Shown piece by piece: positions 26,137 through 53,881 of a stretch of DNA of 53,881 nucleotides. The translations under genes were made by a program, and so were the position numbers. The stretch's first letter is position 1. Each line of letters opens with the position of its first letter. The notes under the pieces were generated by a model. That model made no database searches. It was given only the letters and a program-made list of their open reading frames with translations, and was not told the DNA's origin. Where the stretch lies: positions 1-53,881 of the forward strand of contig JBDRUH010000004.1 of NCBI GenBank assembly GCA_039801225.1, given 5' to 3'. The stretch is from a candidate division WOR-3 bacterium (GTDB taxonomy: Bacteria > Hydrothermota > Tepidihabitantia > Tepidihabitantales > Tepidihabitantaceae).

Positions 26137-26138
26137 TT

Positions 26139-26972
26139 TTACTCTTTTCTATTAAGAACAAAAGGCACCAACTCGGCAAAAAAAACAAATTTTGGTCCAA
26201 GCGCGAGAAAACCATCTCGGGTTTTCTCGGCTAAAATTTCTGCCTTGCGACGCAATTTATTCGCATAGCGCTCCTGGTCTAAAAGGTCGTCGGTCAACTG
26301 AAACAATACCCCCAGTTTCATCCCTAAAAACTCCAACTTTTTCTCAAGTTTTGGGGAAGCATTAGCAATTATTGCTCCGGTGCCAAGTGAGGCGGCAAAA
26401 AACATGCCGGTTTTTAACTCGGCGATTCGCATTAGTTTCGCAAGGCTAAAGCCTTGCCCTATCTGAACCTTTTTATTTGGAGGATTTTGGATTATATCTA
26501 ACATCTGCCCGCCGGCCATACCGCTAATTCCGATAGACCGGGAAATTAAAAGCGTTGCTGCCCCTCTCCGGGCGATGGGCGCCGGCCCGTTCATAAAGAG
26601 TTCATAGGCTAACGCCAAAAGGCCATCTCCGGCAAGGATTGCGGTTGCCTCATCAAACTGCCGGTGAACTGTCGGCTGCCCGCGACGATAATCATCATTG
26701 TCCATACTGGGTAGGTCGTCATGGATTAAAGAAAAGGTGTGGATTAACTCAATCCCGCAGCAAAAAGGTATAACCCAATCCAGCCTCCTCCCGCCGCAAG
26801 CCCGAAATGCCTCCAAGGTCAAAACCGGTCTTAGCCTTTTCCCTTTAGAAAGAACCGCATAGCGCACCGCCTGAGCAAGACGGCAAGGAACTTTTTTGTT
26901 AAAACGGAGCATTTTTTTCAGTTCCCTGTTAATAAGCCGCTGGTCTGCTCTCAGTTGATGGAAAATGTTCAT
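26139..26972 (-). CDS. ispA: Short-chain polyprenyl (farnesyl/geranylgeranyl) diphosphate synthase IspA-like
   Basis: GKRLRP, SLIHDDLPSMDNDDYRRGQPT, AILAGD, GMAGGQ.LD, KTG, FQLTDDLLD; lies in the folD-ispA-dxs synteny. Confidence 0.88.
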   Translation of the reverse strand: MNIFHQLRADQRLINRELKKMLRFNKKVPCRLAQAVRYAVLSKGKRLRPVLTLEAFRACGGRRLDWVIPFCCGIELIHTFSLIHDDLPSMDNDDYRRGQPTVHRQFDEATAILAGDGLLALAYELFMNGPAPIARRGAATLLISRSIGISGMAGGQMLDIIQNPPNKKVQIGQGFSLAKLMRIAELKTGMFFAASLGTGAIIANASPKLEKKLEFLGMKLGVLFQLTDDLLDQERYANKLRRKAEILAEKTRDGFLALGPKFVFFAELVPFVLNRKE

Positions 26973-27829
26973 ACTGAACTCTTTGCTGCTTTGATCACAT
27001 TAGCCAAAAGCATCGCCACCGTCATCGGTCCGACACCCCCGGGCACCGGTGTTATTGCCTGCGCCTTAACCGCCACGCTATCAAACTCCACATCGCCGAC
27101 TATCCCTTTCTCGGTCCGATTAATCCCGGCGTCAACCACTACCACACCGTCTGATACCATATCGCCGGTAATTAGTCCTGGTCTGCCCGCTGCCACAATC
27201 AAAATCTCTGCCTCTTGGCAAATCATACCTAAATCTTCGGTTTTGCTATGGCAAACGGTTACTGTAGCATCTCCTCTCTCCCCGTGCAAGAGAAGCAGAT
27301 TTGCCAGCGGTTTGCCCACCAGTTCACCCCTGCCGACAATTACCACCCGGCGGCGGGCAATTGGAATTGAGTTCCTGACCAAGAGTTCCACAATCCCTCT
27401 CGGTGTCGCCGGGACAAAATTCGGCTTTCCGAGCATTAGTCTGCCTAAATTCACACTGGTCAAACCATCAACATCCTTTTCCGGTTTGATCAGCTCAACA
27501 AGAGAAAATTCGTTCAGGTGAGAAGGTAATGGCAGTTGCAAAATTATCCCGTGAACATTTTTATCTTCATTCGCCTTAACTATTGTGTCAGCAACCTCAT
27601 TCGCCTTTGCGTTTTCAGACAGCCGAACCGTCTCCACCTCAACCCCTATCTTCCGGCACGCCCTTTCCTTATTATTAACATAGATGACCGAGGCCGGATT
27701 ATTTCCGACAAGTATTATGAGCAGTTTCGGAGTTACACCCCTCTCCTTTAAATCTCTCAAATCCCGGGTTAACTCCTCCTGAATAGCCTGAGCGGTTTTC
27801 TTTCCGTCCAAAATGAGTGGTTTATTCAA
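26969..27829 (-). CDS. folD: Methylenetetrahydrofolate dehydrogenase/cyclohydrolase FolD (likely TTG start at 27829)
   Basis: ILDGK, HGIILQLPLP, KDVDG, VGKPLA.LL, VGDV, ITPVPGGVGPMTVAML; AGGAGG just upstream of the TTG. Confidence 0.95.
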   Translation of the reverse strand: MNKPLILDGKKTAQAIQEELTRDLRDLKERGVTPKLLIILVGNNPASVIYVNNKERACRKIGVEVETVRLSENAKANEVADTIVKANEDKNVHGIILQLPLPSHLNEFSLVELIKPEKDVDGLTSVNLGRLMLGKPNFVPATPRGIVELLVRNSIPIARRRVVIVGRGELVGKPLANLLLLHGERGDATVTVCHSKTEDLGMICQEAEILIVAAGRPGLITGDMVSDGVVVVDAGINRTEKGIVGDVEFDSVAVKAQAITPVPGGVGPMTVAMLLANVIKAAKSSV

Positions 27830-27976
27830 AATGCCTCCTAAAATATAAAAATAGCTTTCCGGAAGCAAACCTAAAGGTTTGCCTTTCTTTTGGGGACCGA
27901 ATCGGACTTTCCGGAAGCTGTTTTTTATCAGACACTCAATACATTAAACTCTCGGCGCAAATCCTCCTTTTATAAA

Positions 27977-28005
27977 ATTATGACATAAAATTTACCCGAG
28001 GTCAA
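27977..28005 (-). promoter_or_regulatory. sigma70-type promoter of the folD operon (TTGACC-N17-CATAAT)
   Basis: Read on the minus strand; implies a 5' leader of about 140 nt. Confidence 0.55.
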
Positions 28006-28012
28006 CATTTAA

Positions 28013-29500
28013 TCAGGGCTCAATCGCCACAAACATCGGCTGCCCGGCCCTTTTTATATAACACAACACCGGCTCTTTTGTTTGAGAGAGTTTTTCTATC
28101 ACTTCAATAAAATGGGACTTATTCCTGATCTCCTCCTCACCAATCTTGACAATAACATCGCCTGGTTCTATGCCCGCCTTATCACCCGTGCTACCCGATT
28201 CTACTGAGACCACCTTAACCCCTCCCTTAACATTATTTACTTTCTCTTCCTCAAGTGAAAGATTGCTGACCTTAAGACCTAACCAGTTCCCTTCTGACTT
28301 TTCCTTTTCTATTGAGCCCCTCGCCTGGGTTTCTTCAGGAAACTGCCCGAGTATTATGGCTATTTTCTTCTTTTGACCCTGCCGGATTATGGTCAAGTTT
28401 ACTTTGGTGCCGGGCTTCATTTCAGCAATCTCCTGACGGAACTGTTCCACTCCCTTGGGTGGCACACCATTAACCTCAACAATCACATCACCCACCTGCA
28501 ATCCTGCCTTCTCTGCTGGGGTATTGGGAAGAACTTCACTGATTAGCACCCCGTTCTTATCTTCCAACTTAAGTGCCCGTCTTAAATTATCGGTAACCTC
28601 CTGTGGTCTTATACCAAGATAACCTCGCACCACCTTACCGTGAGCGATTAACTGCTCTACCACTGACTTAACAAACCTAACCGGCACGGCAAAACCAATC
28701 CCGACATTGGCGCCCACCGGTGAGCGTAATGCGGTATTAATCCCGATAAGTTCTCCCCGGATATTCACCAATGCCCCGCCCGAATTGCCGGGGTTGATCG
28801 CAGCATCGGTCTGGATGAAATCCTGCCGGGTCGGTCCCTCAGGTAATGGAATTCCCGACCTCCCGGTCGCAGAAATTACCCCTACGGTCACGGTACTTTG
28901 CAAACCAAACGGGTTACCAATTGCGATTGCCCAGTCGCCAACCTTAATGCTTGCTGGGTCCGCATACTTAATCGCTGGCAAAGGGCTCTTGGCATTTATC
29001 TTTATCACCGCCAGATCGGTCTCTTGGTCTCGCCCAACAATCTTAACATTTTTCCCCTTAAACTCAGTCCCATCAGAAAGCTTCACCACAATATTATCAT
29101 ATCCGGCAACCACATGGTTATTGGTGACAATATATCCATCCTCACTGATTATTACCCCGGAACCTAAAGAATTGATATGCTGTTCTGGAACAGGCATCCC
29201 CCGGAAAAACTCCTTAAAAAACTCCTCAAAAGGACCTTCTATATTGGGAAAAATTGATTCTTCAGAACTCTTAACCACCTTCTCTGCAGAAATGTTGACA
29301 ACCGTGGGAATCACCTTCTCAGCGACCGCAACAAAAGGACTCTCCTGACCGGTTATCGGCTGGGTGCTTGAAACCTGCGCCTCTGCTACTCGGGGAGTTA
29401 AATTAAAAACACTAGCAAAAACAAGACCGAGAACAAACGCGACAATTGTGCATGGTGCTACGATCAGTCCAATCAGTTTTAATGACACTCTTTTCTCCAT
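28013..29500 (-). CDS. degP: DegP/HtrA (Do family) serine endoprotease with two PDZ domains
   Basis: SLGSGVII, TNNHVV, TDLAVIK, AIGNPFGL, IQTDAAINPGNSGG, two PDZ domains. Confidence 0.93.
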   Translation of the reverse strand: MEKRVSLKLIGLIVAPCTIVAFVLGLVFASVFNLTPRVAEAQVSSTQPITGQESPFVAVAEKVIPTVVNISAEKVVKSSEESIFPNIEGPFEEFFKEFFRGMPVPEQHINSLGSGVIISEDGYIVTNNHVVAGYDNIVVKLSDGTEFKGKNVKIVGRDQETDLAVIKINAKSPLPAIKYADPASIKVGDWAIAIGNPFGLQSTVTVGVISATGRSGIPLPEGPTRQDFIQTDAAINPGNSGGALVNIRGELIGINTALRSPVGANVGIGFAVPVRFVKSVVEQLIAHGKVVRGYLGIRPQEVTDNLRRALKLEDKNGVLISEVLPNTPAEKAGLQVGDVIVEVNGVPPKGVEQFRQEIAEMKPGTKVNLTIIRQGQKKKIAIILGQFPEETQARGSIEKEKSEGNWLGLKVSNLSLEEEKVNNVKGGVKVVSVESGSTGDKAGIEPGDVIVKIGEEEIRNKSHFIEVIEKLSQTKEPVLCYIKRAGQPMFVAIEP

Positions 29501-29520
29501 ACCGAACTCCTTTTTATAAA

Positions 29521-29549
29521 TTAGACCCCATTTACTATTCTTAAGTTTC
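29521..29549 (-). promoter_or_regulatory. ECF/sigmaE-type promoter of degP (GAAACTT-N16-GTCTAA)
   Basis: Minus strand reads gaaactt aagaatagtaaatggg gtctaa, then RBS AAAGGAG; resembles the RpoE consensus GGAACTT-N16-GTCTAA. Confidence 0.6.
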
Positions 29550-29565
29550 AGTTCTCGCCATTAAC

Positions 29566-30141
29566 TCAAGACCCGAGCAACTTCCCACCGACACTATTTG
29601 CCCATAACTCCAAAAATTTAACCCCCTTCTCCTTCGCAACCTGACCCTGCCTCTGAAGATATTCCAGACAGGTAGTAATCTCTTCCGGCTCAAGCCGCCT
29701 CAGCCCCTTTTCACCATCTTTATGCCACCGGACCACCAGCATCAACCCTTCCATCACCATCTGGGTATTAACATTTGGCGAACGAAACTCATATATCACC
29801 CCCCGGGAGAGCGCCCGCTGCGTTCTTAACACATTATCAATCGCTTCCAAAACCTCATCTTCAGACAGATTAAAATTAGCTCTCGCCCGTATTTTCACTA
29901 CTGTCATCCGAAGATTATGCAGCACCTCAAAAAATTTAACTTCAAACCTGTTATCACCGGCTAAATTTACCAGACGCTTCAGCGCCTGAGTCCGTGCCTC
30001 CGCGAGATGCTGGCATTCTTCAACACAACGGATTGTCTTATTCCGACTCTTACCGCAACATTTTGAGCAAATTGGCTCGCGCAGTACCGGGCAAAACCGA
30101 CGCGGCGACCGGCCACCACACCGAACGCAAATCTCTTCCAT
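29566..30141 (-). CDS. Hypothetical protein with N-terminal Cys-rich zinc-binding domain (likely start MEEICVRC at 30141)
   Basis: CxxC..RRFCP....IC.KCCG..R...I.C..EC.HL motif followed by a helical domain. Confidence 0.65.
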   Translation of the reverse strand: MEEICVRCGGRSPRRFCPVLREPICSKCCGKSRNKTIRCVEECQHLAEARTQALKRLVNLAGDNRFEVKFFEVLHNLRMTVVKIRARANFNLSEDEVLEAIDNVLRTQRALSRGVIYEFRSPNVNTQMVMEGLMLVVRWHKDGEKGLRRLEPEEITTCLEYLQRQGQVAKEKGVKFLELWANSVGGKLLGS

Positions 30142-30237
30142 TTTTGACACAAATATTACCAAGGAACAACGATAAAGCAAGAAACGGTCACGACCCACGG
30201 ACACGGTTCACGGACTTCCGCGTTTCTTCACAAAAAC

Positions 30238-30265
30238 TTGACTCTATAAGAAATTCGCCTATTAT
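30238..30265 (+). promoter_or_regulatory. sigma70-type promoter TTGACT-N16-TATTAT directly before rpsR
   Basis: ATG at 30271/30274; no SD. Confidence 0.6.
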
Positions 30266-30270
30266 ATTTT

Positions 30271-30483
30271 ATGATGAGAGAAAAACTAAGTAATAGTTCC
30301 CAGAAATGCCCTTTTTGTGAAGAGGGCGTTCGTTATATTGACTATAAAGACCCCCGGCTCAAAGATTATCTCACCGAACGCGGCAGAATAGTCTCCTCTC
30401 GGGTCTCTGGCCTATGTGCCCTCCACCAGCGTCGGCTGGCAAAGGCAATAAAACGGGCACGCAATTTAGCCATTTTACCCTAA
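30271..30483 (+). CDS. rpsR: 30S ribosomal protein S18 (zinc-binding type)
   Basis: KCPFC...[14 protein letters not shown]...RVSG.CA.HQR.LA.AIKRAR.LA.LP. Confidence 0.95.
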
Positions 30484-30489
30484 GGCTTT

Positions 30490-30939
30490 ATGAAAGTTAT
30501 CCTTCTTTCCGACATTAAAGAACTCGGCAAACAAGGAGAAGTTGTGGAGGTCCGGGACGGATTTGCCCGTAACTACCTTTTGCCCCGCAAAATGGCGATA
30601 GTGGCGAATGAAAGAAATCTTCGGCAACTGGAAAGTATTAAAAAAACGCTGGCGAGCCGTGAGGCAAAGCGCACCAAGCGACTTAGTGAATTGGCCGAGC
30701 GACTCGGACTATTAACTCTCAAAACCACCCTCAAAATGGGCGCTGAGGGCGCTTTTGGCGCAATCACCAACGCCGACATCGCCGAATTATTAAAAAAAGC
30801 CGGACAGGAGGTTGATAAGCACGCGATTGTTTTAGAAGAGCCGATCAAAGCGCCCGGGGTGTATGATATTTTAATAAAATTAGGTCAAGAAATTACCGCT
30901 ACGGTGAAGTTATGGGTGGTTGAAGAAGTAGTAAGTTAA
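30490..30939 (+). CDS. rplI: 50S ribosomal protein L9
   Basis: MKVILL.D...LGK.GEVVEVRDGFARNYLLP, FGAIT..DI, PIK..G.Y. Confidence 0.96.
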   Translation: MKVILLSDIKELGKQGEVVEVRDGFARNYLLPRKMAIVANERNLRQLESIKKTLASREAKRTKRLSELAERLGLLTLKTTLKMGAEGAFGAITNADIAELLKKAGQEVDKHAIVLEEPIKAPGVYDILIKLGQEITATVKLWVVEEVVS

Positions 30940-41261: not shown

Positions 41262-42917
41262 CTATCTCAAGAGAAGCACCTTTCTTAGAATCGCCTGATT
41301 ATCCACCCTTAGAGTGCAGAAATATGCGCCCCGAGCAACCTTTCTGCCTCTTTCATCTTTACCATCCCAGTTGGCGGTATACTCTCCTGGTCTCTTATAT
41401 TCATCTATTAGTGTCCGGATTAACCTTCCTGAGGCATCAAAAACCTCAAGCAAAACCCTGCCATCTTTTGGTATTGAGTATTGGAGTTTAGTATTAGCAA
41501 CGGCAAATGTCGGGTAAAGCACTATGTTTTCTCTTGATGGTGTTTGGACATACTCTTCTTCCTCTTCAATACCGGTTGGCGGGGTATACTTAATCGTGAG
41601 ATAGTCATAGTTGCCACTTCCTGGTGCACTCTCACTATAACCGGTAACATACACCGCTCCGGAGTAATAGGCTATCGCCACCGCACGGTCCCGAGTGGTA
41701 TCATAATTATTATATCTCTCCGCCCACATTGAATCGCCCAATCTACTATACTTGACTGTCGCACAGTCATAAGAAGTGCCGGAACCATAACTAAAACCGG
41801 TAACATAAACATTCGCATAAGGGTCATCGCTGACCGCTATCGCCCTTGCCGAATCATTCCCATTTCCCGGTCCGTTGTATCTCTTAACCCACTGCTCAAC
41901 CCCGGATGAGTTGTACTTAATTGTTGCATAGTCAAAAGAAGTGCCTGAGCCTTGACTAAAGCCGGTAACAAACACACTGCCATACTGATGAACCGCTATC
42001 GCAGTCGCTCTATCATTCCCATTTCCCGGTCCGTTGTATCTCTTAACCCACTGCTCCTCCCCGGATGAGTTATACTTGATTGTGGCATAGTCATAACCAG
42101 TGGTGAAACCGCCATAACTATAGCCGGTAACATAAACATTTCCTGAGCCATCCACCGCTATCGCATATGGACTATCTGAAAAATTTCCCGGTCCATTGTA
42201 TCTCTTAACCCACTGCTCCTCTCCGGATGAGTTATATTTAATCGTCAAATAGTCATAGTTAAAACTATTTGCGGTACTCTCACTATACCCGGTAACATAA
42301 ACATTACCTGAGCCATCAACCGCTATCGCATTTGCCGCATCACCTCCATTTCCCGGTCCATTGTATGTTCTCACCCATAATGTGTCTCCGTTACTTGGGT
42401 TATACTTAATCGTCGCAAAGTCAGCATTGGTGCTTGAACCAACCCTTAAATAGCCGGTGACATAAACATTTCCCGAACCATCAACCGCTATCGCATATGG
42501 CATATCCGAACCATTTCCCGGTCCATTGTATATTTTAGCCCACTGTTGAACTCCTGATGAGTTATATTTAACTGTCACCCAATCACCATTACTGACATAA
42601 GTAGCGCCCGTAACATAAACATTACCTGAGCCATCCACCGCTATCGCTTGCGCACGTTCAGTCGTATTATTGTATCTTCTCACCCATAATGTCTCTCCGT
42701 TACTTGGGTTATACTTGATCGTCACAATGTCAGTTGATGGAACTGAACCACCATAACTCTCCCCGGTAACATAAACATACCCGGAATTATCAACCACTAT
42801 CGCTTTTGCTGAATCAGCACCATTTCCTGTGCCGTTGTATCTTGCTACCCAATCTGCGGCGAAAAAGGGCAGCGGATGAAGGAAAAGAAAAAGACTCACA
42901 AGCAAAAACTTTTTCAT
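41262..42917 (-). CDS. Secreted SBBP (seven-bladed beta-propeller)-repeat protein with FlgD/T9SS-like CTD
   Basis: Signal peptide; about 7 repeats of WV.RYNGPGNG.D...AIAVDGSGNVYVTG.S....DY.TIKY; CTD FDASGRLIRTL...WDGKD..GRKVARGAYF...RKVLLLR. Confidence 0.88.
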   Translation of the reverse strand: MKKFLLVSLFLFLHPLPFFAADWVARYNGTGNGADSAKAIVVDNSGYVYVTGESYGGSVPSTDIVTIKYNPSNGETLWVRRYNNTTERAQAIAVDGSGNVYVTGATYVSNGDWVTVKYNSSGVQQWAKIYNGPGNGSDMPYAIAVDGSGNVYVTGYLRVGSSTNADFATIKYNPSNGDTLWVRTYNGPGNGGDAANAIAVDGSGNVYVTGYSESTANSFNYDYLTIKYNSSGEEQWVKRYNGPGNFSDSPYAIAVDGSGNVYVTGYSYGGFTTGYDYATIKYNSSGEEQWVKRYNGPGNGNDRATAIAVHQYGSVFVTGFSQGSGTSFDYATIKYNSSGVEQWVKRYNGPGNGNDSARAIAVSDDPYANVYVTGFSYGSGTSYDCATVKYSRLGDSMWAERYNNYDTTRDRAVAIAYYSGAVYVTGYSESAPGSGNYDYLTIKYTPPTGIEEEEEYVQTPSRENIVLYPTFAVANTKLQYSIPKDGRVLLEVFDASGRLIRTLIDEYKRPGEYTANWDGKDERGRKVARGAYFCTLRVDNQAILRKVLLLR

Positions 42918-45079: not shown

Positions 45080-47797
45080 ATGAAAAGAATTTTTATTATT
45101 GCTGGTGTTGTGCTGGCGCTTGGTTTATCGGTTGTCTTTGCCATTCCTGACAATCATTACCGGATGGCTGAGGTTCACAGGTTCACCCCGGTTGCTGGTG
45201 AAGAGTTAAATTATATCACCTTCAGCAACGGCTATTTTATTGACACCCGTTACGGTGAACCTTCCTTACCATCCGTTTTGCAACTTGAACCTGACAGGGT
45301 GGAAAGTTGCCACTATATCATTCAATTCACCGGTCCGATTCAGCGAATCTGGTTTAATGAACTGGCGCGTATCGGTATCAAAACCTTCGGTTACCTCCCC
45401 AACTATGCGACCATTGCCCGGCTCACGCCAACGCAAAAAGAACAACTCCAAAGTTTGCCTTTCATCCACTGGGTTGGCGTATTCCAGCCGGCTTATAAAA
45501 TTCAAAAGGAACTGTTTGATAGCGGTGGACCCCGTGACATTGCGGTATTGGTAACGCCCGATGAGAACCCAGCCATTCTTGAGGAACTAATTAGCAGTAA
45601 TAACGGCAAAGTTTTCCAGGTGACCACCAGCCCGTTCGGCACGGTCATTCACGCCACCGTACCCGGTGAGTTGATTTTTAAAATCGCCCGCCAGCCTGAG
45701 GCATTCTGGATTCAGGAGTGGACCGAGCCCGCCCTGGCGAACAATAACTGCCAGTGGGTAACCCAGTCTGGCTGGCGCTCCGTTGCACCACCTGATACCT
45801 CTCTGCAAGCCCGACCTATCTGGCAGAAAGGGGTTCGCGGTCAGAGGGTAATAATGTCCACCACCGACACCGGTCTTAATCTCGGTCACGATATGTTTCG
45901 TGACCCGGCTTTATCAGTAACTCCGCCTGGCATCTGGCCCGAACACCGCAAGGTAGTCGCTTATAAAAACTATGCCGGCGCTGACGCCTATGAGGCATTC
46001 TATCACGGCTCCCATGTAAACGGCACGGTTGCCGGAGACGACTCAGTTACTAATGGCACCAGTTTCTATGACGGGATGGCAATAAAATCCCGGCTCTATT
46101 TCGTTGACATAACCAATGGTAACACTTTCCTCCTTCCTACTGACCTTTGGTCCCTCTGGGACACAGTATATTTTGGTCGTGGTTTGCCCGACTCACTTCG
46201 CCCGATAAAGCAGCACTCCGGCTCCTGGGGCTGGTATAACTTTAATGGTACCTATCTAATTCAGGACGCATCAACCGATGCCTTCTCTTGGAAATACAAG
46301 GACTTCCTTAACATCATCGCTGCGGGCAACGAATACTCTGCCCGAACCATCCGCAACCCAGGCATCGCCAAAAATGTCCTTACTGTCGGTGCCACCCAGA
46401 ACGGCACTTCCGCCAATACCATTGCCGACTTCTCCAGTCGGGGACCGACTCAGGATGGCAGATTGAAACCCACGGTTATGGCACCGGGACAGGCGCTTTA
46501 TTCTGCCACCGCTTCGGGCACTAACACCTATGAATCTATGGATGGCACCTCTATGGCAACACCGGCGGTCAATGGCACAGTTGGGCTTCTCCGCTGTTAC
46601 CTTCAGGAAGGCTATTATCCCACCGGCGCACCGGTGGTTAAAAATCGGCTCACCTACATCTCCTCTGCCCTGCTCCGCTCAATGGCGGTCAACTCTTGCG
46701 ACCCCAATATCGGCTCCTATACCCCACCCAACAACAACATCGGCTGGGGCAGGATTGATGCCGATTCGGTGCTCTACTTCTCCGGTGATACCCGTCGGCT
46801 TATCCTAAAAGATGACACTTTTGGCGTTGCCACCGGCGAATACAAACAGGAGCAGTTTCAGGTTAACTCCTCAATCCCCTTACGCGTGACGCTTGCCTGG
46901 ACCGACACGGCAGCCGCACCTAACGCCAGCCCGACTTTAGTAAATAACCTTGACTTGGAACTCATATCGCCCTCAGGCGTCTCCTATCATGGCAACAAAT
47001 ACTCTGGTGGACAATCCGTCCCCAATCCCAACGGCTGGGATTCGCTCAATACTGAAGAGTGCTGTAGAATAAACTCACCCGAAACCGGACTGTGGACAAT
47101 AAAGGTCTGGGGGCGGAATGTGGTAACCAGTAAACCCCAGCCATTTGCCTGGACAATCACCGGTAGTGTTGGGCACCGTGATGTTGGACCAATCGGGATT
47201 TTAGCCCCGGCTGGTATCGTTGACTCCGGCTCGGTTGTTACCCCGAAGACCCTGATTAAAAACTTTAGCGATAAAACCGAAACTTTGAAGGTGGTGTTGA
47301 AAATTGGAACGGCTTATGTGGACACCCAGCCAATTGTTCTATCTGGGGGAGTTGCCGAGACGCTGGCCTTTTCTTCCTGGAGCGCTAATGTTGTCGGCAC
47401 CTATGTCAGCCGGTGCACCACCCTCCTTAATGGCGACAATAATCCAGCAAATGATATCCTGATAGACACTTTTGAGGTTGGCTACGGAAGCGGCGTAACT
47501 GAGGAAATAACCATCCCTAAAACCACTTTCCTCGCCCCAGCAATGCCCAACCCTTTCCGCAGAATAGCGATAGTTAAGTTCGGCTTACCCGAACCCTCGT
47601 TTGTCCAAATCCAGATATTCTCGGTTACCGGTGAACTGCTCAAGACGCTCTTTGCGGGCGAAAAGTCCGCTGGTTTTCACTCAATTAGTTGGAACGGCAC
47701 TGACCAAAACAACCGACCGGTTGGTTATGGGGTTTTTTACTGCCAGATGAAAAGCAAAGGCAAGACGCTCGTGAGAAAGATGGTTAAAACAAAATAA
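45080..47797 (+). CDS. Secreted S8 (subtilisin, KP-43-like) serine peptidase with Ig-like domain and FlgD/T9SS-like CTD
   Basis: Signal peptide; triad TDTG / YHGSHVNGT / GTSMATP; AAGNE, FSSRGPT.DGR.KP, LAWTD...LVNNLDL; CTD PNPF...WNGTD..NRPVG.GVFY...RKMVK. Confidence 0.92.
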   Translation: MKRIFIIAGVVLALGLSVVFAIPDNHYRMAEVHRFTPVAGEELNYITFSNGYFIDTRYGEPSLPSVLQLEPDRVESCHYIIQFTGPIQRIWFNELARIGIKTFGYLPNYATIARLTPTQKEQLQSLPFIHWVGVFQPAYKIQKELFDSGGPRDIAVLVTPDENPAILEELISSNNGKVFQVTTSPFGTVIHATVPGELIFKIARQPEAFWIQEWTEPALANNNCQWVTQSGWRSVAPPDTSLQARPIWQKGVRGQRVIMSTTDTGLNLGHDMFRDPALSVTPPGIWPEHRKVVAYKNYAGADAYEAFYHGSHVNGTVAGDDSVTNGTSFYDGMAIKSRLYFVDITNGNTFLLPTDLWSLWDTVYFGRGLPDSLRPIKQHSGSWGWYNFNGTYLIQDASTDAFSWKYKDFLNIIAAGNEYSARTIRNPGIAKNVLTVGATQNGTSANTIADFSSRGPTQDGRLKPTVMAPGQALYSATASGTNTYESMDGTSMATPAVNGTVGLLRCYLQEGYYPTGAPVVKNRLTYISSALLRSMAVNSCDPNIGSYTPPNNNIGWGRIDADSVLYFSGDTRRLILKDDTFGVATGEYKQEQFQVNSSIPLRVTLAWTDTAAAPNASPTLVNNLDLELISPSGVSYHGNKYSGGQSVPNPNGWDSLNTEECCRINSPETGLWTIKVWGRNVVTSKPQPFAWTITGSVGHRDVGPIGILAPAGIVDSGSVVTPKTLIKNFSDKTETLKVVLKIGTAYVDTQPIVLSGGVAETLAFSSWSANVVGTYVSRCTTLLNGDNNPANDILIDTFEVGYGSGVTEEITIPKTTFLAPAMPNPFRRIAIVKFGLPEPSFVQIQIFSVTGELLKTLFAGEKSAGFHSISWNGTDQNNRPVGYGVFYCQMKSKGKTLVRKMVKTK

Positions 47798-47920: not shown

Positions 47921-47998
47921 TGTCGCACCAATTGAATTTGTCGCACCGGAAAAACTTGACTAATGGACATTTTTATGTAAAATACAGTTTATGTCGCA
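47921..47998 (+). promoter_or_regulatory. Promoter of the kinase-bEBP gene: TTGACT-N16-TAAAAT (47956-47983) with three TGTCGCA boxes (47921, 47939, 47992)
   Basis: Read directly; the same heptamer forms the palindromic enhancer at 53356-53374. Confidence 0.7.
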
Positions 47999-50900
47999 TA
48001 TCGCTCAAGGGCTATTTCAACCATCTCAATTATTGTGTGAGCGATATCGGGTCGTTGAACTGTTGGGCGGAGGTGAAAAAACTGAGGTCTATAAGGTTCA
48101 CGACACTCTCAGAAATAAACTTCTCGCGCTTAAGGTTTTACGAGAGGTAAAAGGGAAAAACGATGAGTTAACCCTCAGGAGAGAGTTTTACTATCTTTCT
48201 AAACTTTATCATCCAAGAGTTGTTACCGTTTATGATTTCGGAATAACACCGGAACGCAAACCTTACTTTACAATGGAATATGTCCCCGGTATGCCAATAA
48301 CCAGATATTTTTCCGGGAAATTTAACCCGGACTTGATTGAAGTAATCACCCAACTCCTTAGAGCGCTTGATTATATCCACTCTCAAGGACTTTTGCACTG
48401 TGACCTTAAACCTCAACATATTCTCGTCTTTGAAGATAATGGCAAACCGCAGACAAAACTTTTAGATTTTGGTTTTGCCGAGCGTCGGGAGTTTTCTAAA
48501 AATGTCAGCGCCCGAGGAACCCTTGGCTATATCGCGCCCGAGGTTTTTAAAGGGGTTGACACCGATGTCCGTGCCGACCTTTATTCACTGGGGGTTGTTC
48601 TCTACGAAACTTTAACCGGCATCACTCCGGGCGAAGGTAAAGATATTTATGATTGGCTAAGAAGGCAGTATACTTCCGGTTTTTTGCCGCCCCGAAAATT
48701 CAATCCCGAAATCCCTGAAGAACTGGAAAGCCTAATTATGCAACTTCTTAGCATTGAACCGGAACGCCGACCGGCTTCGGCACGAGCGGCTTTCCAACTC
48801 CTCACCAAGAGTCTGCCAGAGGAAATTACTCCAGTTGATTTACGAGGGGATTTAATGTCCGCCGGATTTGTTGGTCGCCAGGGATGTCTCAACCGGTTGA
48901 AGGAATGGCTACGGCATTCAAAAGAAGGCAGACCAGGGGTGGTATGCATTTCCGGGGAAAGAGGCGCTGGTAAAAGTCGTCTCCTAACCGAGTTCAAGTT
49001 TTTTGCCCAGTTGGAAGGTGCGACTGTTCTGGCATTTGAGCCAGTTTCCCTAGGTGCCCGTTCCCAGTCACTGATTGAGGCGATGCTCAACCTCTTACGG
49101 CTCTATGGCGTAAGTATTGAACTAAATTTAGACACCGCAGTGGAAACCAAATTCCGCTTGTTTGAGACGGTGACTCAGCGACTCAAGAGCCTTGCCGACT
49201 CCCATAGAATACCGCATAGCCTGGTAATTATTGTGGACGACTTTGAAATGTTTGACCCGACCAGCCTGGAGTTTCTTCGTTATCTCGCCTTCGGACTGGA
49301 CAAGGAACGCCTCCTGCTGGTCGTTACCGGTTTGAATGAAAAGCGTTTTTTAGACCTGATTGACGCTCTAGTAGAAAAACGCTATTGTGAACACATTCCG
49401 ATTCCACCATTGGAGCAGGAGGAGGTAAAGAACTTATTGAGTTCCCTTTTAGGAGAGGTGATAGAAATTGACACACTCACAAGTTGGCTTTTTCACCTCA
49501 CCGGTGGTAACCCTCTCTGGACGATTGAGACAGTTTATGCCCTTATTGAAAATAAAATCCTTGTCCGGGATGGCTTAAGGTGGCGGTTAGTGTCCGAGAA
49601 ACTTCAGAAATTTCAAGCCCCTCAGGCGGTAACCGAAGTTGTCCGGCGCCGAATTGAGCGATTGACGCCAGATGAAATGGAAGTGCTAAATATCGGCGCA
49701 GTAGCGAGTGGACCTTTTACCGTAGAGTTTCTCCGCGCCGTTGGTAACTTTGACGAACAGGCTCTTTTCACTATTATCAGCCGGCTTAAGGGGTTAGGGT
49801 TTTTGCGGACATTCCGAAGTTTGGTTGATGAGAAAGATGTCTCATTAGACACATATATCCTCTCCAGCAAAATCCTGGAAACCGCAATAACCGAAAGACT
49901 CTCCATTCCCCAGCGCCGAGAACTTCATCGCCGGGTTGCTCTGACACTGGAACTCCTTTATCCGGAGAAAATTCCGGAGATGATTTTTGACCTTGCCCAC
50001 CACTGGGCTCAAACCGAAATTAAGGACCGGGCTTACCGATATTCTCTCCAGGCAGGGGCAAAGGCACAGGAGTGGCTACTTTTTGAACAGGCGCTATCTT
50101 TTTATGAACAGGGGCTTGCTCTCTCAAACGAACTAATTTCGCCCCAGGAAAAACTTCAACTGATGGAAACGGTCGGCAAACTCCGGGAAGCCACCGGCAG
50201 ATTCGCCGAGGCGATTGACCTTTACCGCCAGGGTATGGGGATTCTTGTCGCCCATCCCGAACTGTCCTTTAATAAAAAGATTTTAGCCCGATTTCTCCAA
50301 CTCATCGGTCTGGTGCATCAGAAACAAGGACAAACTACTGAGGCGCTCAATTTCCTAAAACAGGCGCTCCTATTGGAGCCAGACCGAACCGGGCTGGACT
50401 ACGCCCGGCTTCTTGCCGACCTGGGCTGGTCCTATTGTGCTATTGGAAACTTTAATCAGGCAGAAGAAGTTTTGAGCCAGGCGCTAAACTTAGCAGAGAA
50501 TTTAAAGTCAATCAAACCGCTGGAGGCAAACCGGCTTATTGCCCAGACGCTTTATTCTTTCAGCGTTCTTGCCTACTCCCGCTCTGACCTTATCTCAGCC
50601 CGACGACTTGCCGAGCGCAGCCTGGAGGTTTACGAATTGGCGCAAGATGAAATTATGAGCGCCCGGGTGAGGCAGTTTACTGCAACGCTTTACCTCCGTA
50701 TCTCAGAACCACAAAAGGCAAAAGAGTGTTACCTCCAGGCGCTGACAATCCAGCAAAGGTCTGGTGATGTATATTCCCAACTCCGTTCCCTTCACGGATT
50801 GGGTCTAATCAATTTAGAGGAAGGAAACTGGGATGACGCCTACGAACGGTTCTCTGAAGCGCTGCGACTGGCAGAAAAAATTAATGATGTAGCATCCGAG

Positions 50901-53249
50901 GTAAATCTTTGTGGTATGTTAGGAACGGTGTGCACAGAAAAAGGTGAGTGGAGTCTGGCTCAAGATTATTTTCAACGGGCACTGGAAACCGCCAGTCGTG
51001 CCGGTGAGCGAGTAGACCCTTCTGCCTTAGTTAGGTCGCTTATAAGCTTTGCTCAACTAAAGGCAAGAAAAGGAAATTTAGGGGAGGCGGAAGAGAAGAT
51101 CAAATCGGCGGTTGATTTAGCAGATGAAACTCCGGATCCGAATTTGCGCTACTATTTGCTTCTTCTTCAAGCAGAGGTCGCCCTCCGGAGAGAGCGGTTT
51201 GAACAGACAAGGGCTTTTCTGGTCCAAGCGTTCAATCTGGTGCATTCTCAGATAGGATTTGGGAAGGAAAAGGACTGGCGTCTACTAACAACACTCTATC
51301 TTCTCGCCAGCCAGTTCCGGCTAACAACTAAAGATTTTTACCGGGCAGAATTTGCTGCTAATTACGCCCTGAGATTTCTTAATAAATATCCTACTTATCG
51401 GGATTATCCAGTCGCTTTGCGGTTAACTGGGCTGGCAAAATGTTATCTCGGAAGAGCCAAAGAGGGAAAAGAGGCGATAAACCGAAGCATCCAAATTCTT
51501 CGTCACCTCGGGGCAAAATATGAACTGGGACTTTCCCTTTTGGCATCAGCCGAAGCGGTACTAAGAGTTATACCCAAGGAACAAGAAAAAGGGAATGGAG
51601 AAATTAATCCTGAGGCGCTCCAGGAGATAGAGGAAAATTTGAAGGAGGCGTTGAGCATCTTTCAGACACTCGGGGCAAAATTTGAGATCGCTCGTACTGA
51701 GGAACTCTTAAACGACTTAAAAAGAACTTACGGAGTAGCACAACTCAAGGCAAGGGAGCGAACTAAGTATCTGAAGGTGTTTTATCAACTCAGTGAACTG
51801 ATTCACCTTGGTATTGAAAAAGAGGACTTCCTTGACCAGGTCCTTGACCTGCTCATTAGCGTTACTAAAGCAGAACGGGGACTTTTATTTCTCCTTCACA
51901 ACAACCGGCTTCATCCTGTCGCAATCAGAAGTATTGAGCGGGCAACCCTGATGGATGCGGAGATGATTTCTCATTCGGTCCTGGAGAAGGTAAAACAGCG
52001 TGGCGAGCCGGTTATCAGTGTGGATGCGATAACCGATGGTCGGTTCAACATTTTTAATAGCGTCCTTTTAAACAAAATCCGCTCTTTACTCTGTGTCCCG
52101 CTGGTGGTAGAAGAAAGGGTCTTAGGCACAATCTATCTTGATAGCAGGCTTACATCTCATCTCTGGACCGAAGATGACCGCAATCTGCTCACCGCAGTTG
52201 CCAACCTCCTCGCCGCAACCATTGAACGCTCTCCCGCCTTCCAAATGCTCCAAGAGGAAACGGGTTTAAGTGAGGAAGTTATTATTGATGTTGAGGATGA
52301 AGAAATTTTCCTCAGCCGGTCAAAGGCAATGCGGGCGGTTCATCAAGTCATTGACCGAATCGCACCTACCGATTGCACCGTTCTACTTACCGGTGAAACC
52401 GGCACTGGAAAGGGGGTTTTAGCCCGACTGATTCATCAACGAAGTTCCAGGAAGGAAAAGAAGTTTGTCCCGGTCAACTGTGGCACCCTGCCCGAGACAC
52501 TTTTTGAGTCAGAACTGTTTGGACATATCCGGGGCAGTTTTACCGGTGCAATCAAGGATAAGATGGGGATTTTTGAAAGCGCCAATGGCGGCACCGTCTT
52601 TTTAGACGAAATTACCAACACCACCCCGGCAATTCAGGCAAAACTTTTACAAGTCCTTGAGGAAAAAACAATCAGGCGATTGGGCGAGACCGAAACAAGA
52701 AGAGTTGATGTCCGTTTGCTCTGTGCCACGAATAAAAACCTTATTGAGGAGGTGAAAGCCGGGAGGTTCCGGGAAGACCTCTTTTATCGGATTAATGTTG
52801 TTAACATCTATGTGCCTCCATTGCGGGAAAGGGCTGATGACATCCCTGCGCTCGCCAACTACTTCCTCCGCCGACATGCCAACCGCTTCCAAAAGCCCGT
52901 GCTCGGCTTTGATGAAGGTGTAATTGCCGCTTTTACCCAATACCATTGGCCTGGTAATGTCCGGGAACTACAGAATGCGATAGAAAGGGCGGTGATTATA
53001 ACTGATAAGAAAAAACTATCGCTTGAGGATTTCGGTGCTCCATTTGTGGAACTCTCTCCAAATAATGGTTTTGAGCCAGTGGAGAAAAAAAAGAGGCGGC
53101 ACTTGGACAGGGAAAAAGTGGTCCAGGCACTGAAAGAGACAAAAGGCAATATCACCCGAGCCGCAGAACTACTTTCCATCCATCGGCGGCATCTCCAAAG
53201 ATTGATAAAACGGTATCAGATAGACCGCGATGTTTTTGGTCAGGATTAA
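47991..53249 (+). CDS. Multidomain sigma54-dependent activator: Ser/Thr kinase + P-loop (AAA_16/STAND-like) ATPase + TPR + GAF + sigma54 AAA+ + Fis HTH
   Basis: Kinase ALKVL, HCDLKPQH, DFG, GTLGYIAPE, DLYSLG; ATPase GERGAGKS, IIVDD, TGGNP; TPR helices; GAF RSLLCVPL...VLGTIYLDS; bEBP GETGTGKG, ESELFGH.RGSFTGA, FLDEI, FREDLFYR, WPGNVRELQN; HTH GNITRAAELL. Confidence 0.92.
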   Translation: MSHIAQGLFQPSQLLCERYRVVELLGGGEKTEVYKVHDTLRNKLLALKVLREVKGKNDELTLRREFYYLSKLYHPRVVTVYDFGITPERKPYFTMEYVPGMPITRYFSGKFNPDLIEVITQLLRALDYIHSQGLLHCDLKPQHILVFEDNGKPQTKLLDFGFAERREFSKNVSARGTLGYIAPEVFKGVDTDVRADLYSLGVVLYETLTGITPGEGKDIYDWLRRQYTSGFLPPRKFNPEIPEELESLIMQLLSIEPERRPASARAAFQLLTKSLPEEITPVDLRGDLMSAGFVGRQGCLNRLKEWLRHSKEGRPGVVCISGERGAGKSRLLTEFKFFAQLEGATVLAFEPVSLGARSQSLIEAMLNLLRLYGVSIELNLDTAVETKFRLFETVTQRLKSLADSHRIPHSLVIIVDDFEMFDPTSLEFLRYLAFGLDKERLLLVVTGLNEKRFLDLIDALVEKRYCEHIPIPPLEQEEVKNLLSSLLGEVIEIDTLTSWLFHLTGGNPLWTIETVYALIENKILVRDGLRWRLVSEKLQKFQAPQAVTEVVRRRIERLTPDEMEVLNIGAVASGPFTVEFLRAVGNFDEQALFTIISRLKGLGFLRTFRSLVDEKDVSLDTYILSSKILETAITERLSIPQRRELHRRVALTLELLYPEKIPEMIFDLAHHWAQTEIKDRAYRYSLQAGAKAQEWLLFEQALSFYEQGLALSNELISPQEKLQLMETVGKLREATGRFAEAIDLYRQGMGILVAHPELSFNKKILARFLQLIGLVHQKQGQTTEALNFLKQALLLEPDRTGLDYARLLADLGWSYCAIGNFNQAEEVLSQALNLAENLKSIKPLEANRLIAQTLYSFSVLAYSRSDLISARRLAERSLEVYELAQDEIMSARVRQFTATLYLRISEPQKAKECYLQALTIQQRSGDVYSQLRSLHGLGLINLEEGNWDDAYERFSEALRLAEKINDVASEVNLCGMLGTVCTEKGEWSLAQDYFQRALETASRAGERVDPSALVRSLISFAQLKARKGNLGEAEEKIKSAVDLADETPDPNLRYYLLLLQAEVALRRERFEQTRAFLVQAFNLVHSQIGFGKEKDWRLLTTLYLLASQFRLTTKDFYRAEFAANYALRFLNKYPTYRDYPVALRLTGLAKCYLGRAKEGKEAINRSIQILRHLGAKYELGLSLLASAEAVLRVIPKEQEKGNGEINPEALQEIEENLKEALSIFQTLGAKFEIARTEELLNDLKRTYGVAQLKARERTKYLKVFYQLSELIHLGIEKEDFLDQVLDLLISVTKAERGLLFLLHNNRLHPVAIRSIERATLMDAEMISHSVLEKVKQRGEPVISVDAITDGRFNIFNSVLLNKIRSLLCVPLVVEERVLGTIYLDSRLTSHLWTEDDRNLLTAVANLLAATIERSPAFQMLQEETGLSEEVIIDVEDEEIFLSRSKAMRAVHQVIDRIAPTDCTVLLTGETGTGKGVLARLIHQRSSRKEKKFVPVNCGTLPETLFESELFGHIRGSFTGAIKDKMGIFESANGGTVFLDEITNTTPAIQAKLLQVLEEKTIRRLGETETRRVDVRLLCATNKNLIEEVKAGRFREDLFYRINVVNIYVPPLRERADDIPALANYFLRRHANRFQKPVLGFDEGVIAAFTQYHWPGNVRELQNAIERAVIITDKKKLSLEDFGAPFVELSPNNGFEPVEKKKRRHLDREKVVQALKETKGNITRAAELLSIHRRHLQRLIKRYQIDRDVFGQD

Positions 53250-53355
53250 CAGGAACTGTAGTATGCAAAATTACAATCCTGTTCACTGTTATCATCATCG
53301 CTCAATTTGCCAGACTAGACCCACCTCATTAAAATTTGCCCTCTTAAACTATCAG

Positions 53356-53444
53356 TGCGACAATTTTTGTCGCAGATTAGGTCGCACCAACATTAAGTAA
53401 TGATTTTGAAAGGAGTTACAATAATAAAGTCGAATAGTGCGACA
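53356..53444. promoter_or_regulatory. Putative bEBP upstream activator sequences: TGCGACAA-N3-TTGTCGCA (53356-53374) plus half-sites GTCGCA (53381) and TGCGACAA (53438)
   Basis: Perfect inverted repeat about 155-170 bp upstream of a sigma54 box, a typical enhancer distance. Confidence 0.7.
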
Positions 53445-53448
53445 AAAT

Positions 53449-53461
53449 TATCAATTATTTA
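53449..53461 (+). promoter_or_regulatory. IHF-binding consensus site (TATCAA-TTAT-TTA)
   Basis: Exact match to WATCAANNNNTTR, between the enhancer and the sigma54 promoter. Confidence 0.55.
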
Positions 53462-53484
53462 TATTTTGAGGAAAGGGATAATTA

Positions 53485-53514
53485 TTATAAGTAACGCAAT
53501 TGCGTTACTTATAA
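53485..53514. promoter_or_regulatory. Perfect 30-bp palindrome TTATAAGTAACGCAATTGCGTTACTTATAA (putative operator)
   Basis: Checked base by base; ends 13 bp upstream of the -24 element. Confidence 0.75.
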
Positions 53515-53527
53515 ATGTGCTCAAAAG

Positions 53528-53543
53528 TGGCACGATAATTGCA
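53528..53543 (+). promoter_or_regulatory. sigma54 (RpoN) -24/-12 promoter TGGCACG-ATAA-TTGCA
   Basis: Matches TGGCAC-N5-TTGC with correct GG/GC spacing; adjacent to a sigma54 activator gene. Confidence 0.88.
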
Positions 53544-53574
53544 GTTAATCAAAGAAAAAAGAAAGGAGAACAAA

Positions 53575-53634
53575 ATGGACGGACCGATTGTGCCAATTTA
53601 TCCGCCACCAGTTCCGCCCGCACCACCGGCGTAA
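53575..53634 (+). CDS. 19-aa proline-rich micropeptide MDGPIVPIYPPPVPPAPPA
   Basis: Strong SD (AAAGGAG, 6 nt before ATG); first ORF after the sigma54 promoter; 9 of 19 residues are Pro, using mixed codons (CCG/CCA/CCC); below the ORF-track size cutoff. Confidence 0.7.
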   Translation: MDGPIVPIYPPPVPPAPPA

Positions 53635-53648
53635 TTGGTGAAAAGAAT

Positions 53649-53690
53649 ATGATTTAATGCCCTGCCTCCATAAAGGAGGGCATTAATCAT
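53649..53690 (+). terminator. Stem-loop between the micropeptide and the pilin gene (attenuator or stabilizer)
   Basis: ATGATT(T)AATGCCCT...AGGGCATTAATCAT inverted repeat; weak U-tract. Confidence 0.6.
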
Positions 53691-53730
53691 TTAGTTGGTA
53701 GATAAACTTTAAAAAGAAAGGAGAAGTAAA

Positions 53731-53881
53731 GTGATAAAACATAACAATAAAGGTTTTACTTTGATAGAAGTATTGGTAGTCATTCTCATCCTTGGCATCC
53801 TGATGGCGATTGTCATCCCGAACTATATCCGGTATCAGGAGAATGCGCGCCGGGTGGCAGTCAAAGCAAATATGCGGGTTA
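53731..53881 (+). CDS. Type IV pilin / pseudopilin-like protein (class III signal peptide), truncated by the window end
   Basis: GTG start with SD AAAGGAG; MIKHNNKG|FTLIEVLVVILILGILMAIVIPNY, i.e. prepilin cleavage G|F, E at +5, hydrophobic helix, P22. Confidence 0.9.
   Translation, partial: MIKHNNKGFTLIEVLVVILILGILMAIVIPNYIRYQENARRVAVKANMRV

Follow-up and report, generated by a model that had tools for sequence, protein, structure and literature searches.

Which gene is the target of a 1752-residue sigma-54 activator whose own gene is followed by upstream boxes, a -24/-12 promoter, a 19-codon open reading frame (ORF) and the first part of a pilin gene? The question arises at the far end of the window, that is, the whole stretch of 53,881 nucleotides (nt) analysed here, which represents contig C4 of a 72-contig assembly (1.5 Mb, 89% complete) of a candidate division WOR-3 bacterium. 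An earlier note on this DNA had described the activator, its cis elements and a Pro-rich micropeptide as a self-contained sigma-54 unit, and had proposed that this unit stands in for the PilS/PilR system in driving the pilin. The activator, palindrome, -24/-12 element, 19-amino-acid (aa) ORF, hairpin and pilin are all present at, or within one base of, the positions given there, and the order downstream of the regulator gene is palindrome, boxes at 53381 and 53438, a match to the IHF consensus, a 28-bp palindrome, the -24/-12 element, the small ORF, the hairpin and the prepilin. The idea of a self-contained unit was borne out, in that promoter, boxes and ORF recur in orthologous loci. From this comparison we judge it probable that WOR-3 bacteria share a two-gene module here that is conserved and autoregulated, in which a multi-sensor sigma-54 activator is paired with a Pro-rich peptide expressed from a dedicated sigma-54 promoter.

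The promoter and the proline-rich small gene behind the regulator

The DNA downstream of the regulator gene was compared between the window and 42 orthologues (protein identity 31–59%); four stretches with fewer than 250 nt past the stop codon were set aside, and 39 loci, window included, were judged. The earlier note had pointed to homologous loci as a check on its reading, where a lack of the small ORF and of the sigma-54 box would speak against it. In all 39 loci a Pro-rich ORF with a Shine-Dalgarno sequence was found on the same strand, a few hundred bases past the regulator stop, and under stricter criteria such an ORF was retrieved in 33 of the 39 as compared to 1 of 308 control windows taken from the same loci. 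Within the 250 nt before the Pro-rich ORF, a -24/-12-like box is seen in 30/39 loci vs. 17/948 control windows, and in 33 loci the top-scoring site shows the GG-N10-GC signature. TGCGAC half-sites are likewise enriched (see below), whereas the remaining part of the check, the pilin, did not recur: a prepilin motif stands behind the regulator in the window only (1/39).

In the window, the small ORF (53575–53634, + strand) is unannotated; it starts with ATG, with GGAG six bases 5′, and encodes a Pro-rich peptide of 19 aa (MDGPIVPIYPPPVPPAPPA). A 31-aa frame started by TTG was set aside, as the codons that it adds precede the point where transcription is expected to begin, and the window genome holds no second short Pro-rich ORF of this kind. 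The peptides of 28 loci are leaderless and 16–21 residues long, most starting with M-D-G and sharing the core ..P-I-x-P-P-x-P-x-P..P-P-x, while the other 11 loci encode longer forms (27–127 residues), most of which, on inspection by eye, begin with a signal-peptide-like segment, and several of which carry two to five tandem units of D-G-I-P-x-P-P-x-P-x-P. One locus (L022, genome G219) has two small ORFs in tandem, each with its own Shine-Dalgarno sequence and differing only in their last residues. Comparison of related peptides of equal length shows the small ORF to be under selection at the peptide level, with 111 synonymous vs. 92 nonsynonymous codon differences and all four Pro codons in use. 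Database searches added no name to the family: no Rfam match was found in 53200–53881 at E ≤ 1, Pfam gave nothing above cut-off for ten of the longer Pro-rich proteins, and a 66-aa Pro-rich form had no usable match in the ESM Atlas.

The predicted sigma-54 promoter TGGCACGATAATTGCA (53528–53543, + strand) reads TGGCAC-N5-TTGCA, with its GG at 53529–30 and its GC at 53541–42, and transcription is expected to start near 53554. The strict pattern TGGCAY-N5-TTGCW occurs at five sites in the genome when both strands are counted, two of them intergenic and three inside genes. The other strict matches were rejected as members of a regulon, three being intragenic and none having TGCGAC boxes. The second intergenic match (G000:C5:50565) precedes a small membrane protein of ~62 aa, and this promoter is probably another activator's because it has no TGCGAC boxes.

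Upstream of the promoter we recognized two candidate enhancers on the + strand. The distal one (53356–53388) consists of the perfect palindrome TGCGACAA-N3-TTGTCGCA (53356–53374), which can be written as TGCGACA-N5-TGTCGCA, and a GTCGCA box (53381–53386); the palindrome is present as a single copy in the assembly (1.5 Mb), where its closest other matches deviate at two positions. The proximal one is the box GTGCGACAA (53437–53445), 90 nt 5′ of the point at which the -24 element begins. Across the 39 loci, TGCGAC/GTCGCA half-sites reach a density of 9.79/kb between the stop codon and the -24/-12 box vs. 0.62/kb distally, and they fall at -96 to -84 from the box start in 22 loci and at -66 to -48 in 16, so that the GGTGCGACA boxes typically lie ~90 and ~55 nt before the box start. 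The positionally conserved site in the window is that at 53438, to which the perfect palindrome is added farther from the promoter.

Between enhancer and promoter, the IHF consensus match WATCAANNNNTTR reported in the earlier note is indeed present (53449–53461, + strand), but a match recurs at the corresponding position in none of the 38 other loci and lies elsewhere in four. The site was for this reason rejected as a conserved element, and it is probably not functional as such. The usual place of IHF sites is occupied by a perfect 28-bp palindrome, TATAAGTAACGCAA/TTGCGTTACTTATA (53486–53513, + strand). Relative to the -24 box, TAAGT occurs at -38 to -41 in 14/39 loci and ACTTA at -18 to -22 in 10/39; the 6-mers are enriched, an enrichment that is partly confounded by that of AT-rich words in general in this region. 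In the window, this element takes the form of the 28-bp palindrome. The words are kept near the -24 box in L007, L020, L023, L033, L039 and others. Because related loci keep both, the palindrome is likely to be the site of a second DNA-binding factor, or a bend.

The small ORF is followed by a predicted hairpin (~53649–53690, + strand; -21.5 kcal/mol, z -2.6), which is terminator-like and has a weak T tract, so that read-through is possible. GC-rich hairpins follow the ORF in most orthologues, starting 15–65 nt past its stop, and 23 of 38 also have at least five T in 9 nt.

The regulator and the probable control of its own synthesis

The regulator gene (47991–53249, + strand; 1752 aa) was mapped with Pfam and NCBIfam. 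The predicted order of the protein is a Hanks-type Ser/Thr kinase (Pkinase, PF00069, residues 19–264, 1.2e-44), a STAND ATPase with its nucleotide-binding oligomerization domain (NOD; AAA_16, PF13191, residues 293–443), a putative arm, a TPR sensor including TPR_MalT (PF17874, residues ~700–1200), a GAF domain (residues 1278–1411), a sigma-54 AAA+ domain (Sigma54_activat, PF00158, residues 1442–1606, 9e-69) with AAA_lid_14 (residues 1612–1686), and a Fis-type helix-turn-helix (HTH; HTH_8, PF02954, residues 1703–1742, 33 bits vs. a cut-off of 22). Neither Pfam nor NCBIfam placed a receiver domain in this map, and NtrC-type models align to the regulator only from profile position ~100–140 on. 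No NCBIfam equivalog model reached its cut-off (NifA scored 369 bits vs. 528.85), and the top alignments, NifA and NorR, cover only the GAF-AAA+-HTH part (residues ~1261–1744). The sequence features of a sigma-54 activator are found, i.e., an AAA+ domain with Walker A and B and GAFTGA, a C-terminal HTH, and rpoN in the genome together with a -24/-12 element and upstream boxes. In the STAND part, the NOD has both Walker motifs, A and B, and a sensor made of repeats comes after it. Besides rpoN (on contig C5), the genome holds three sigma-54 activators and one HU/IHF-family gene.

A homologue search, in which 8000 candidates were scored, retrieved 1155 proteins at E ≤ 0.001; the best 120 of these are mostly 1600–1900 aa long with an identical Pfam set, and more than 100 full-length homologues were obtained. 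Those homologues that have a name are designated candidate division WOR-3. Matches at E ≤ 1e-100 are found in 170 of the 272 genomes of the phylum, ~85 of the matches spanning nearly the whole regulator and the remainder only its C-terminal activator part. Aligned over 112 full-length homologues, the kinase Lys (K48) is kept in 109, and H136-x-D138, D159-F-G and A-P-E are invariant; a His replaces the Asn after the catalytic loop in the window protein, as it does in 36 of the 112. The STAND Walker A (GxxGxGK[ST]) is invariant and its Walker B (D[DN]) conserved, and Walker A and B, G[AS]FTGA and the arginines of the activator domain, which in the window protein carries GETGTGKG, GSFTGA and VFLDEI, vary little or not at all. 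The TPR region diverges most, with a mean identity to the window protein of 0.37 as compared to 0.70 in the AAA+ domain.

The same half-sites precede the regulator gene. Two direct TGTCGCACC boxes (47921–47929 and 47939–47947, + strand) stand directly 5′ of a predicted sigma-70-like promoter of the regulator (47956–47983, + strand; TTGACT, 16-nt spacer, TAAAAT; 10/12 consensus matches), and this pair is a candidate autoregulatory operator. With the strict pattern GTCGCA-N9-16-GTCGCA-N0-14-TTGAC, a direct pair of boxes ~18 bp apart was found before the regulator gene in 11 of the 21 loci, the TTGAC after the boxes being present in orthologues too, and half-sites occur at 6.44/kb within the 340 nt that precede the gene vs. 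0.32/kb elsewhere. The flanking bases of the upstream and downstream box sets agree and give the consensus GGTGCGACA. The regulator start codon itself sits inside another TGTCGCA box (ATGTCGCAT, 47991–47999), which may be due to chance as orthologues begin differently.

From the known behaviour of the HTH, AAA+, STAND and GAF families, the regulator would thus be a ligand- and ATP-gated assembly switch. Its HTH would bind the GGTGCGACA boxes, and STAND-type oligomerization, driven by ligand and ATP through the TPR sensor, would build the AAA+ ring that opens the sigma-54 promoter, the ring touching sigma-54 through G[AS]FTGA as in the rest of the family. GAF domains gate sigma-54 activators, and here the GAF domain and the kinase may supply further inputs. 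At its own promoter the regulator would control its own synthesis, and the peptide gene would form a separate transcription unit, which starts at the sigma-54 promoter and ends at the hairpin.

A number of points weigh against such a conserved two-gene module. Five of the 39 loci have no half-site between stop codon and box, and nine have no box matching the -24/-12 pattern used. The genomes are related and not independent, so that locus counts overstate the statistical weight, and the start codons of the small ORFs were picked by rule, wrongly in at least one case (L034). RNA runs covering 53250–53881 were looked for and none was found. Finally, among 20 more distant loci (~31–35% identity, some of them paralogues in the same genome), a small Pro-rich protein was found in nine, and in ~5 others a GAF/HD-GYP gene appears, from a reading of the frames, to lie directly behind the promoter. 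Because only nine of these 20 loci have the Pro-rich protein, the pairing of regulator and peptide is not universal in the wider family.

The distant Pro-rich proteins are mostly 62–67 aa long and consist of an N-terminal hydrophobic segment, the motif AVA[YF]A-DSDTV and a polyproline tail, the part after the motif being ~18 residues, which is the length of the leaderless peptides. A profile of nine such forms retrieved a family of 70 clusters without Pfam domains or functional names, the named ones being called "hypothetical" or "uncharacterized" bar one automatic Joint Genome Institute (JGI) label. In two loci of the first set (L042, L044) the Pro-rich protein is followed by a GAF-HD-GYP gene confirmed by Pfam, and in distant relatives (L042, L044, L069, L071, L073, L076 and L077) the sigma-54 promoter behind the regulator appears to drive such a gene, with or without the Pro-rich protein. 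The position of this gene behind the promoter links the regulator family to the turnover of cyclic di-GMP.

Possible roles of the peptide

If the module is as described, the role of its peptide remains to be weighed. The plainer reading, to which we give slightly less than an even chance, is that the peptide is output only, i.e., a secreted or surface polyproline effector (serving, e.g., adhesion, matrix or antagonism) that feeds nothing back to the regulator. The longer forms, with their signal-peptide-like N-termini and two to five tandem units, resemble structural or secreted proteins, and neither an Opp-type binding protein (PF00496) nor an SbmA/BacA importer (PF05992) was found in the 89%-complete genome, which also counts against a feedback role; CstA is encoded in the genome. 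STAND TPR sensors can also bind inducers other than peptides, as MalT does with maltotriose (PMC4381067), and signals could also enter through the kinase or the GAF domain. Set against an output-only peptide are the 28 short forms entirely without a leader, and the gene order with boxes before both genes, which mirrors receptor-propeptide pairs; the signature of RRNPP systems is laid out in PMC10075063. The divergence of the TPR region relative to the AAA+ domain would be compatible with a ligand that co-diverges, although this is a weak point.

The reading that we prefer, although at well below an even chance, is that the peptide feeds back on the TPR sensor as its signal, much as PapR does on PlcR. 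It may amount to a peptide autoinduction circuit outside Firmicutes, in which the STAND/TPR sensor recognizes a polyproline peptide of ~18 residues and switches on the promoter of that peptide, while the regulator would act on its own promoter as well. The ancestral peptide would then have been the C-terminal part of a secreted propeptide, as in the 62–67 aa forms (...AVA[YF]A / DSDTV..PPPPPPP..) or in multi-unit precursors; in the lineage of the window the leader would have been lost and the peptide made directly at mature length in the cytoplasm, whereby a communal signal may have become a private feedback switch that is gated further by kinase and GAF domain. The missing signal peptide of the short forms counts against feedback as well. 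A co-folding of an orthologous pair from genome G176, combining arm and TPR region (residues 660–1290, 70-row alignment) with the 73-residue mature part of its repeat protein, ended without an answer (score 0.00) and speaks neither way.

The earlier note had instead seen the pilin as the real target, with the regulator as a one-component substitute for PilS/PilR and the micropeptide as co-product or ligand. The gene in question (53731–53881, + strand) is the 5′ part of a type IV pilin or pseudopilin that has a GTG start and runs off the contig end (TIGR02532, 37.4 bits vs. 16.3); it shows a prepilin leader, G-F-T-L-I-E and a hydrophobic helix. In the window it follows the small ORF by 96 nt on the same strand, the intervening hairpin has a weak T tract, and pilus/type II secretion system (T2SS) ATPases are encoded in the genome. 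Hot-spring metagenomes hold DNA near-identical to the window, and in four DNA runs of one study independent contigs join small ORF, hairpin and pilin; because contigs of other runs bridge them, the adjacency of small ORF and pilin is real in the population. The ribosome-binding regions of both genes share a 14-mer, AAAAGAAAGGAGAA (at 53557 and 53712), that has no further copies in the genome. This near-identity, which the earlier note had reported correctly, was nevertheless rejected as evidence of co-regulation, the 14-mer being an A-rich, strong ribosome-binding site; the shorter AAAGGAGAA has 84 copies in the genome.

The other loci argue against a pilin target, and we consider it unlikely. 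No prepilin motif was found in the other 42 downstream and 20 other upstream stretches, the genes downstream of the peptide at other loci are unrelated to one another, and the regulator has no receiver domain. The pilin moreover belongs to a set of seven or more prepilin-like N-termini encoded in the genome (four on contig C10 at 24519–30812, two on C11 and that of the window), and its first 137 nt (53745–53881) match the pilin at C11:28243 at 135 of 137 positions, so that the contig stops within a repeat. At the other pilin loci neither a strict nor a loose -24/-12 match was found. As the motif is present in the window only, the hairpin separates the two genes and the pilin is paralogous and cut at a repeat, the proposed substitute for PilS/PilR was abandoned. 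Judged by these comparisons the pilin is a strain-specific neighbour outside the conserved module, which may here receive read-through past the weak terminator.

A regulatory leader, in which polyproline stalling or the supply of proline would set termination at the hairpin and thereby downstream expression, would agree with the hairpin behind the ORF. Runs of PPP are translated slowly without EF-P, which also counts in its favour. We consider this very unlikely in view of downstream genes that differ in kind and are convergent in at least eight loci, of a peptide unit that is also conserved inside longer, signal-peptide-like proteins, and of hairpins that start 15–65 nt after the stop. Least probable of all, and in our view to be dismissed, is a chance frame within a sigma-54-dependent non-coding RNA, as the unannotated 19 codons without Rfam or Pfam match might suggest, given that the frame, Shine-Dalgarno sequence and Pro positions are kept in 39 loci while the codons vary among all four for Pro, and that control windows yield so few comparable ORFs.

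Known systems, neighbouring genes and meaning

The activator half of the regulator resembles the NifA/NorR/FhlA class, with which it shares the GAF domain, the AAA+ domain with G[AS]FTGA, the Fis-type HTH, and dyad or half-site boxes ~80–150 bp upstream of a -24/-12 promoter. It differs from that class by ~1250 extra N-terminal residues with kinase and STAND-TPR parts, and by a dedicated target that is a gene for a 19-aa peptide. The N-terminal half resembles MalT, AfsR and PknK in its NOD with Walker A and B, arm, TPR-type sensor and effector domains at the ends. In the STAND scheme, as given in PMC4381067, the NOD-arm-TPR unit multimerizes on inducer binding, and PknK is a kinase-STAND protein; AfsR is described as a STAND regulator (PMC10936776). 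In contrast to these proteins, the output here is a sigma-54 AAA+ activator and not a LuxR or SARP DNA-binding domain, and the chain therefore contains two ATPase modules.

With PlcR-PapR and Rgg-SHP the module shares a cytoplasmic regulator that bears TPRs and whose gene adjoins that of a small peptide, and leaders on some of the peptides but not on others. PlcR boxes precede both plcR and papR. The five-point RRNPP signature (PMC10075063) includes a propeptide of 10–100 aa adjoining its receptor, a TPR receptor of ~250–500 aa, and secretion (by Sec or PptAB) with processing and re-import, and three of the five points are seen at this locus (small peptide, TPRs and direct adjacency). The receptor size is not, the regulator being 1752 aa long with five further domains. 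The module also departs from the RRNPP systems in lying outside Firmicutes, in its sigma-54 output and in its polyproline peptides. Compared to PilS/PilR, the regulator is likewise a sigma-54 activator, and in the window a pilin lies downstream of a -24/-12 promoter, but it has neither a receiver domain nor a partner histidine kinase, a small ORF and hairpin stand between promoter and pilin, and the pilin is absent from all other loci. A paper on the myxobacterial kinome reportedly mentions fusions of kinase and activator. In the literature covered, with most subscription journals outside the search, no sigma-54 activator with kinase, STAND, TPR and GAF parts and no Pro-rich peptide as target was described.

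Beyond regulator and peptide, the flanking genes vary by locus and no other conserved neighbour was found. Downstream at other loci we found SmpB-amidase-racemase-RNase PH, a convergent radical-SAM gene with a C25 peptidase, CstA, VIT-VWA or HD-GYP genes, and upstream a CN hydrolase, YitT, a transglutaminase or a pyridoxal phosphate (PLP) enzyme, where the window has an S8 peptidase. The upstream S8 peptidase and the downstream C25 peptidase and radical-SAM genes were considered as conserved partners and rejected, since neighbours differ by locus. The S8 peptidase (45080–47797, + strand) and an SBBP-repeat protein (41262–42917, - strand) of the window end in a C-terminus of the FlgD_ig/Por_Secre_tail type, as does the C25 peptidase of relatives (L006:1577–4300, - strand), which suggests a sorting signal like that of the type IX secretion system in the phylum. 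The contigs of L012, L015, L018, L043, L036, L034 and the window, which come from different assemblies, end within a few hundred bases past the regulator gene, and the region behind this gene seems to be prone to assembly breaks.

For the uncultured WOR-3 phylum, the module amounts to a concrete and testable circuit with a defined DNA box, a promoter and a 19-aa product. Its regulator unites three signalling engines that are usually separate, i.e., a Hanks kinase, a STAND switch and a sigma-54 AAA+ activator, and the micropeptide coupled to it is of a kind overlooked by gene callers. Should the sensor of the regulator have this peptide as its ligand, RRNPP-like signalling would reach into a distant phylum, where the receptor is built differently and the output runs through sigma-54. 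If it is an effector only, a function would still have to be found for these polyproline micropeptides, which form a conserved family with its own dedicated control.

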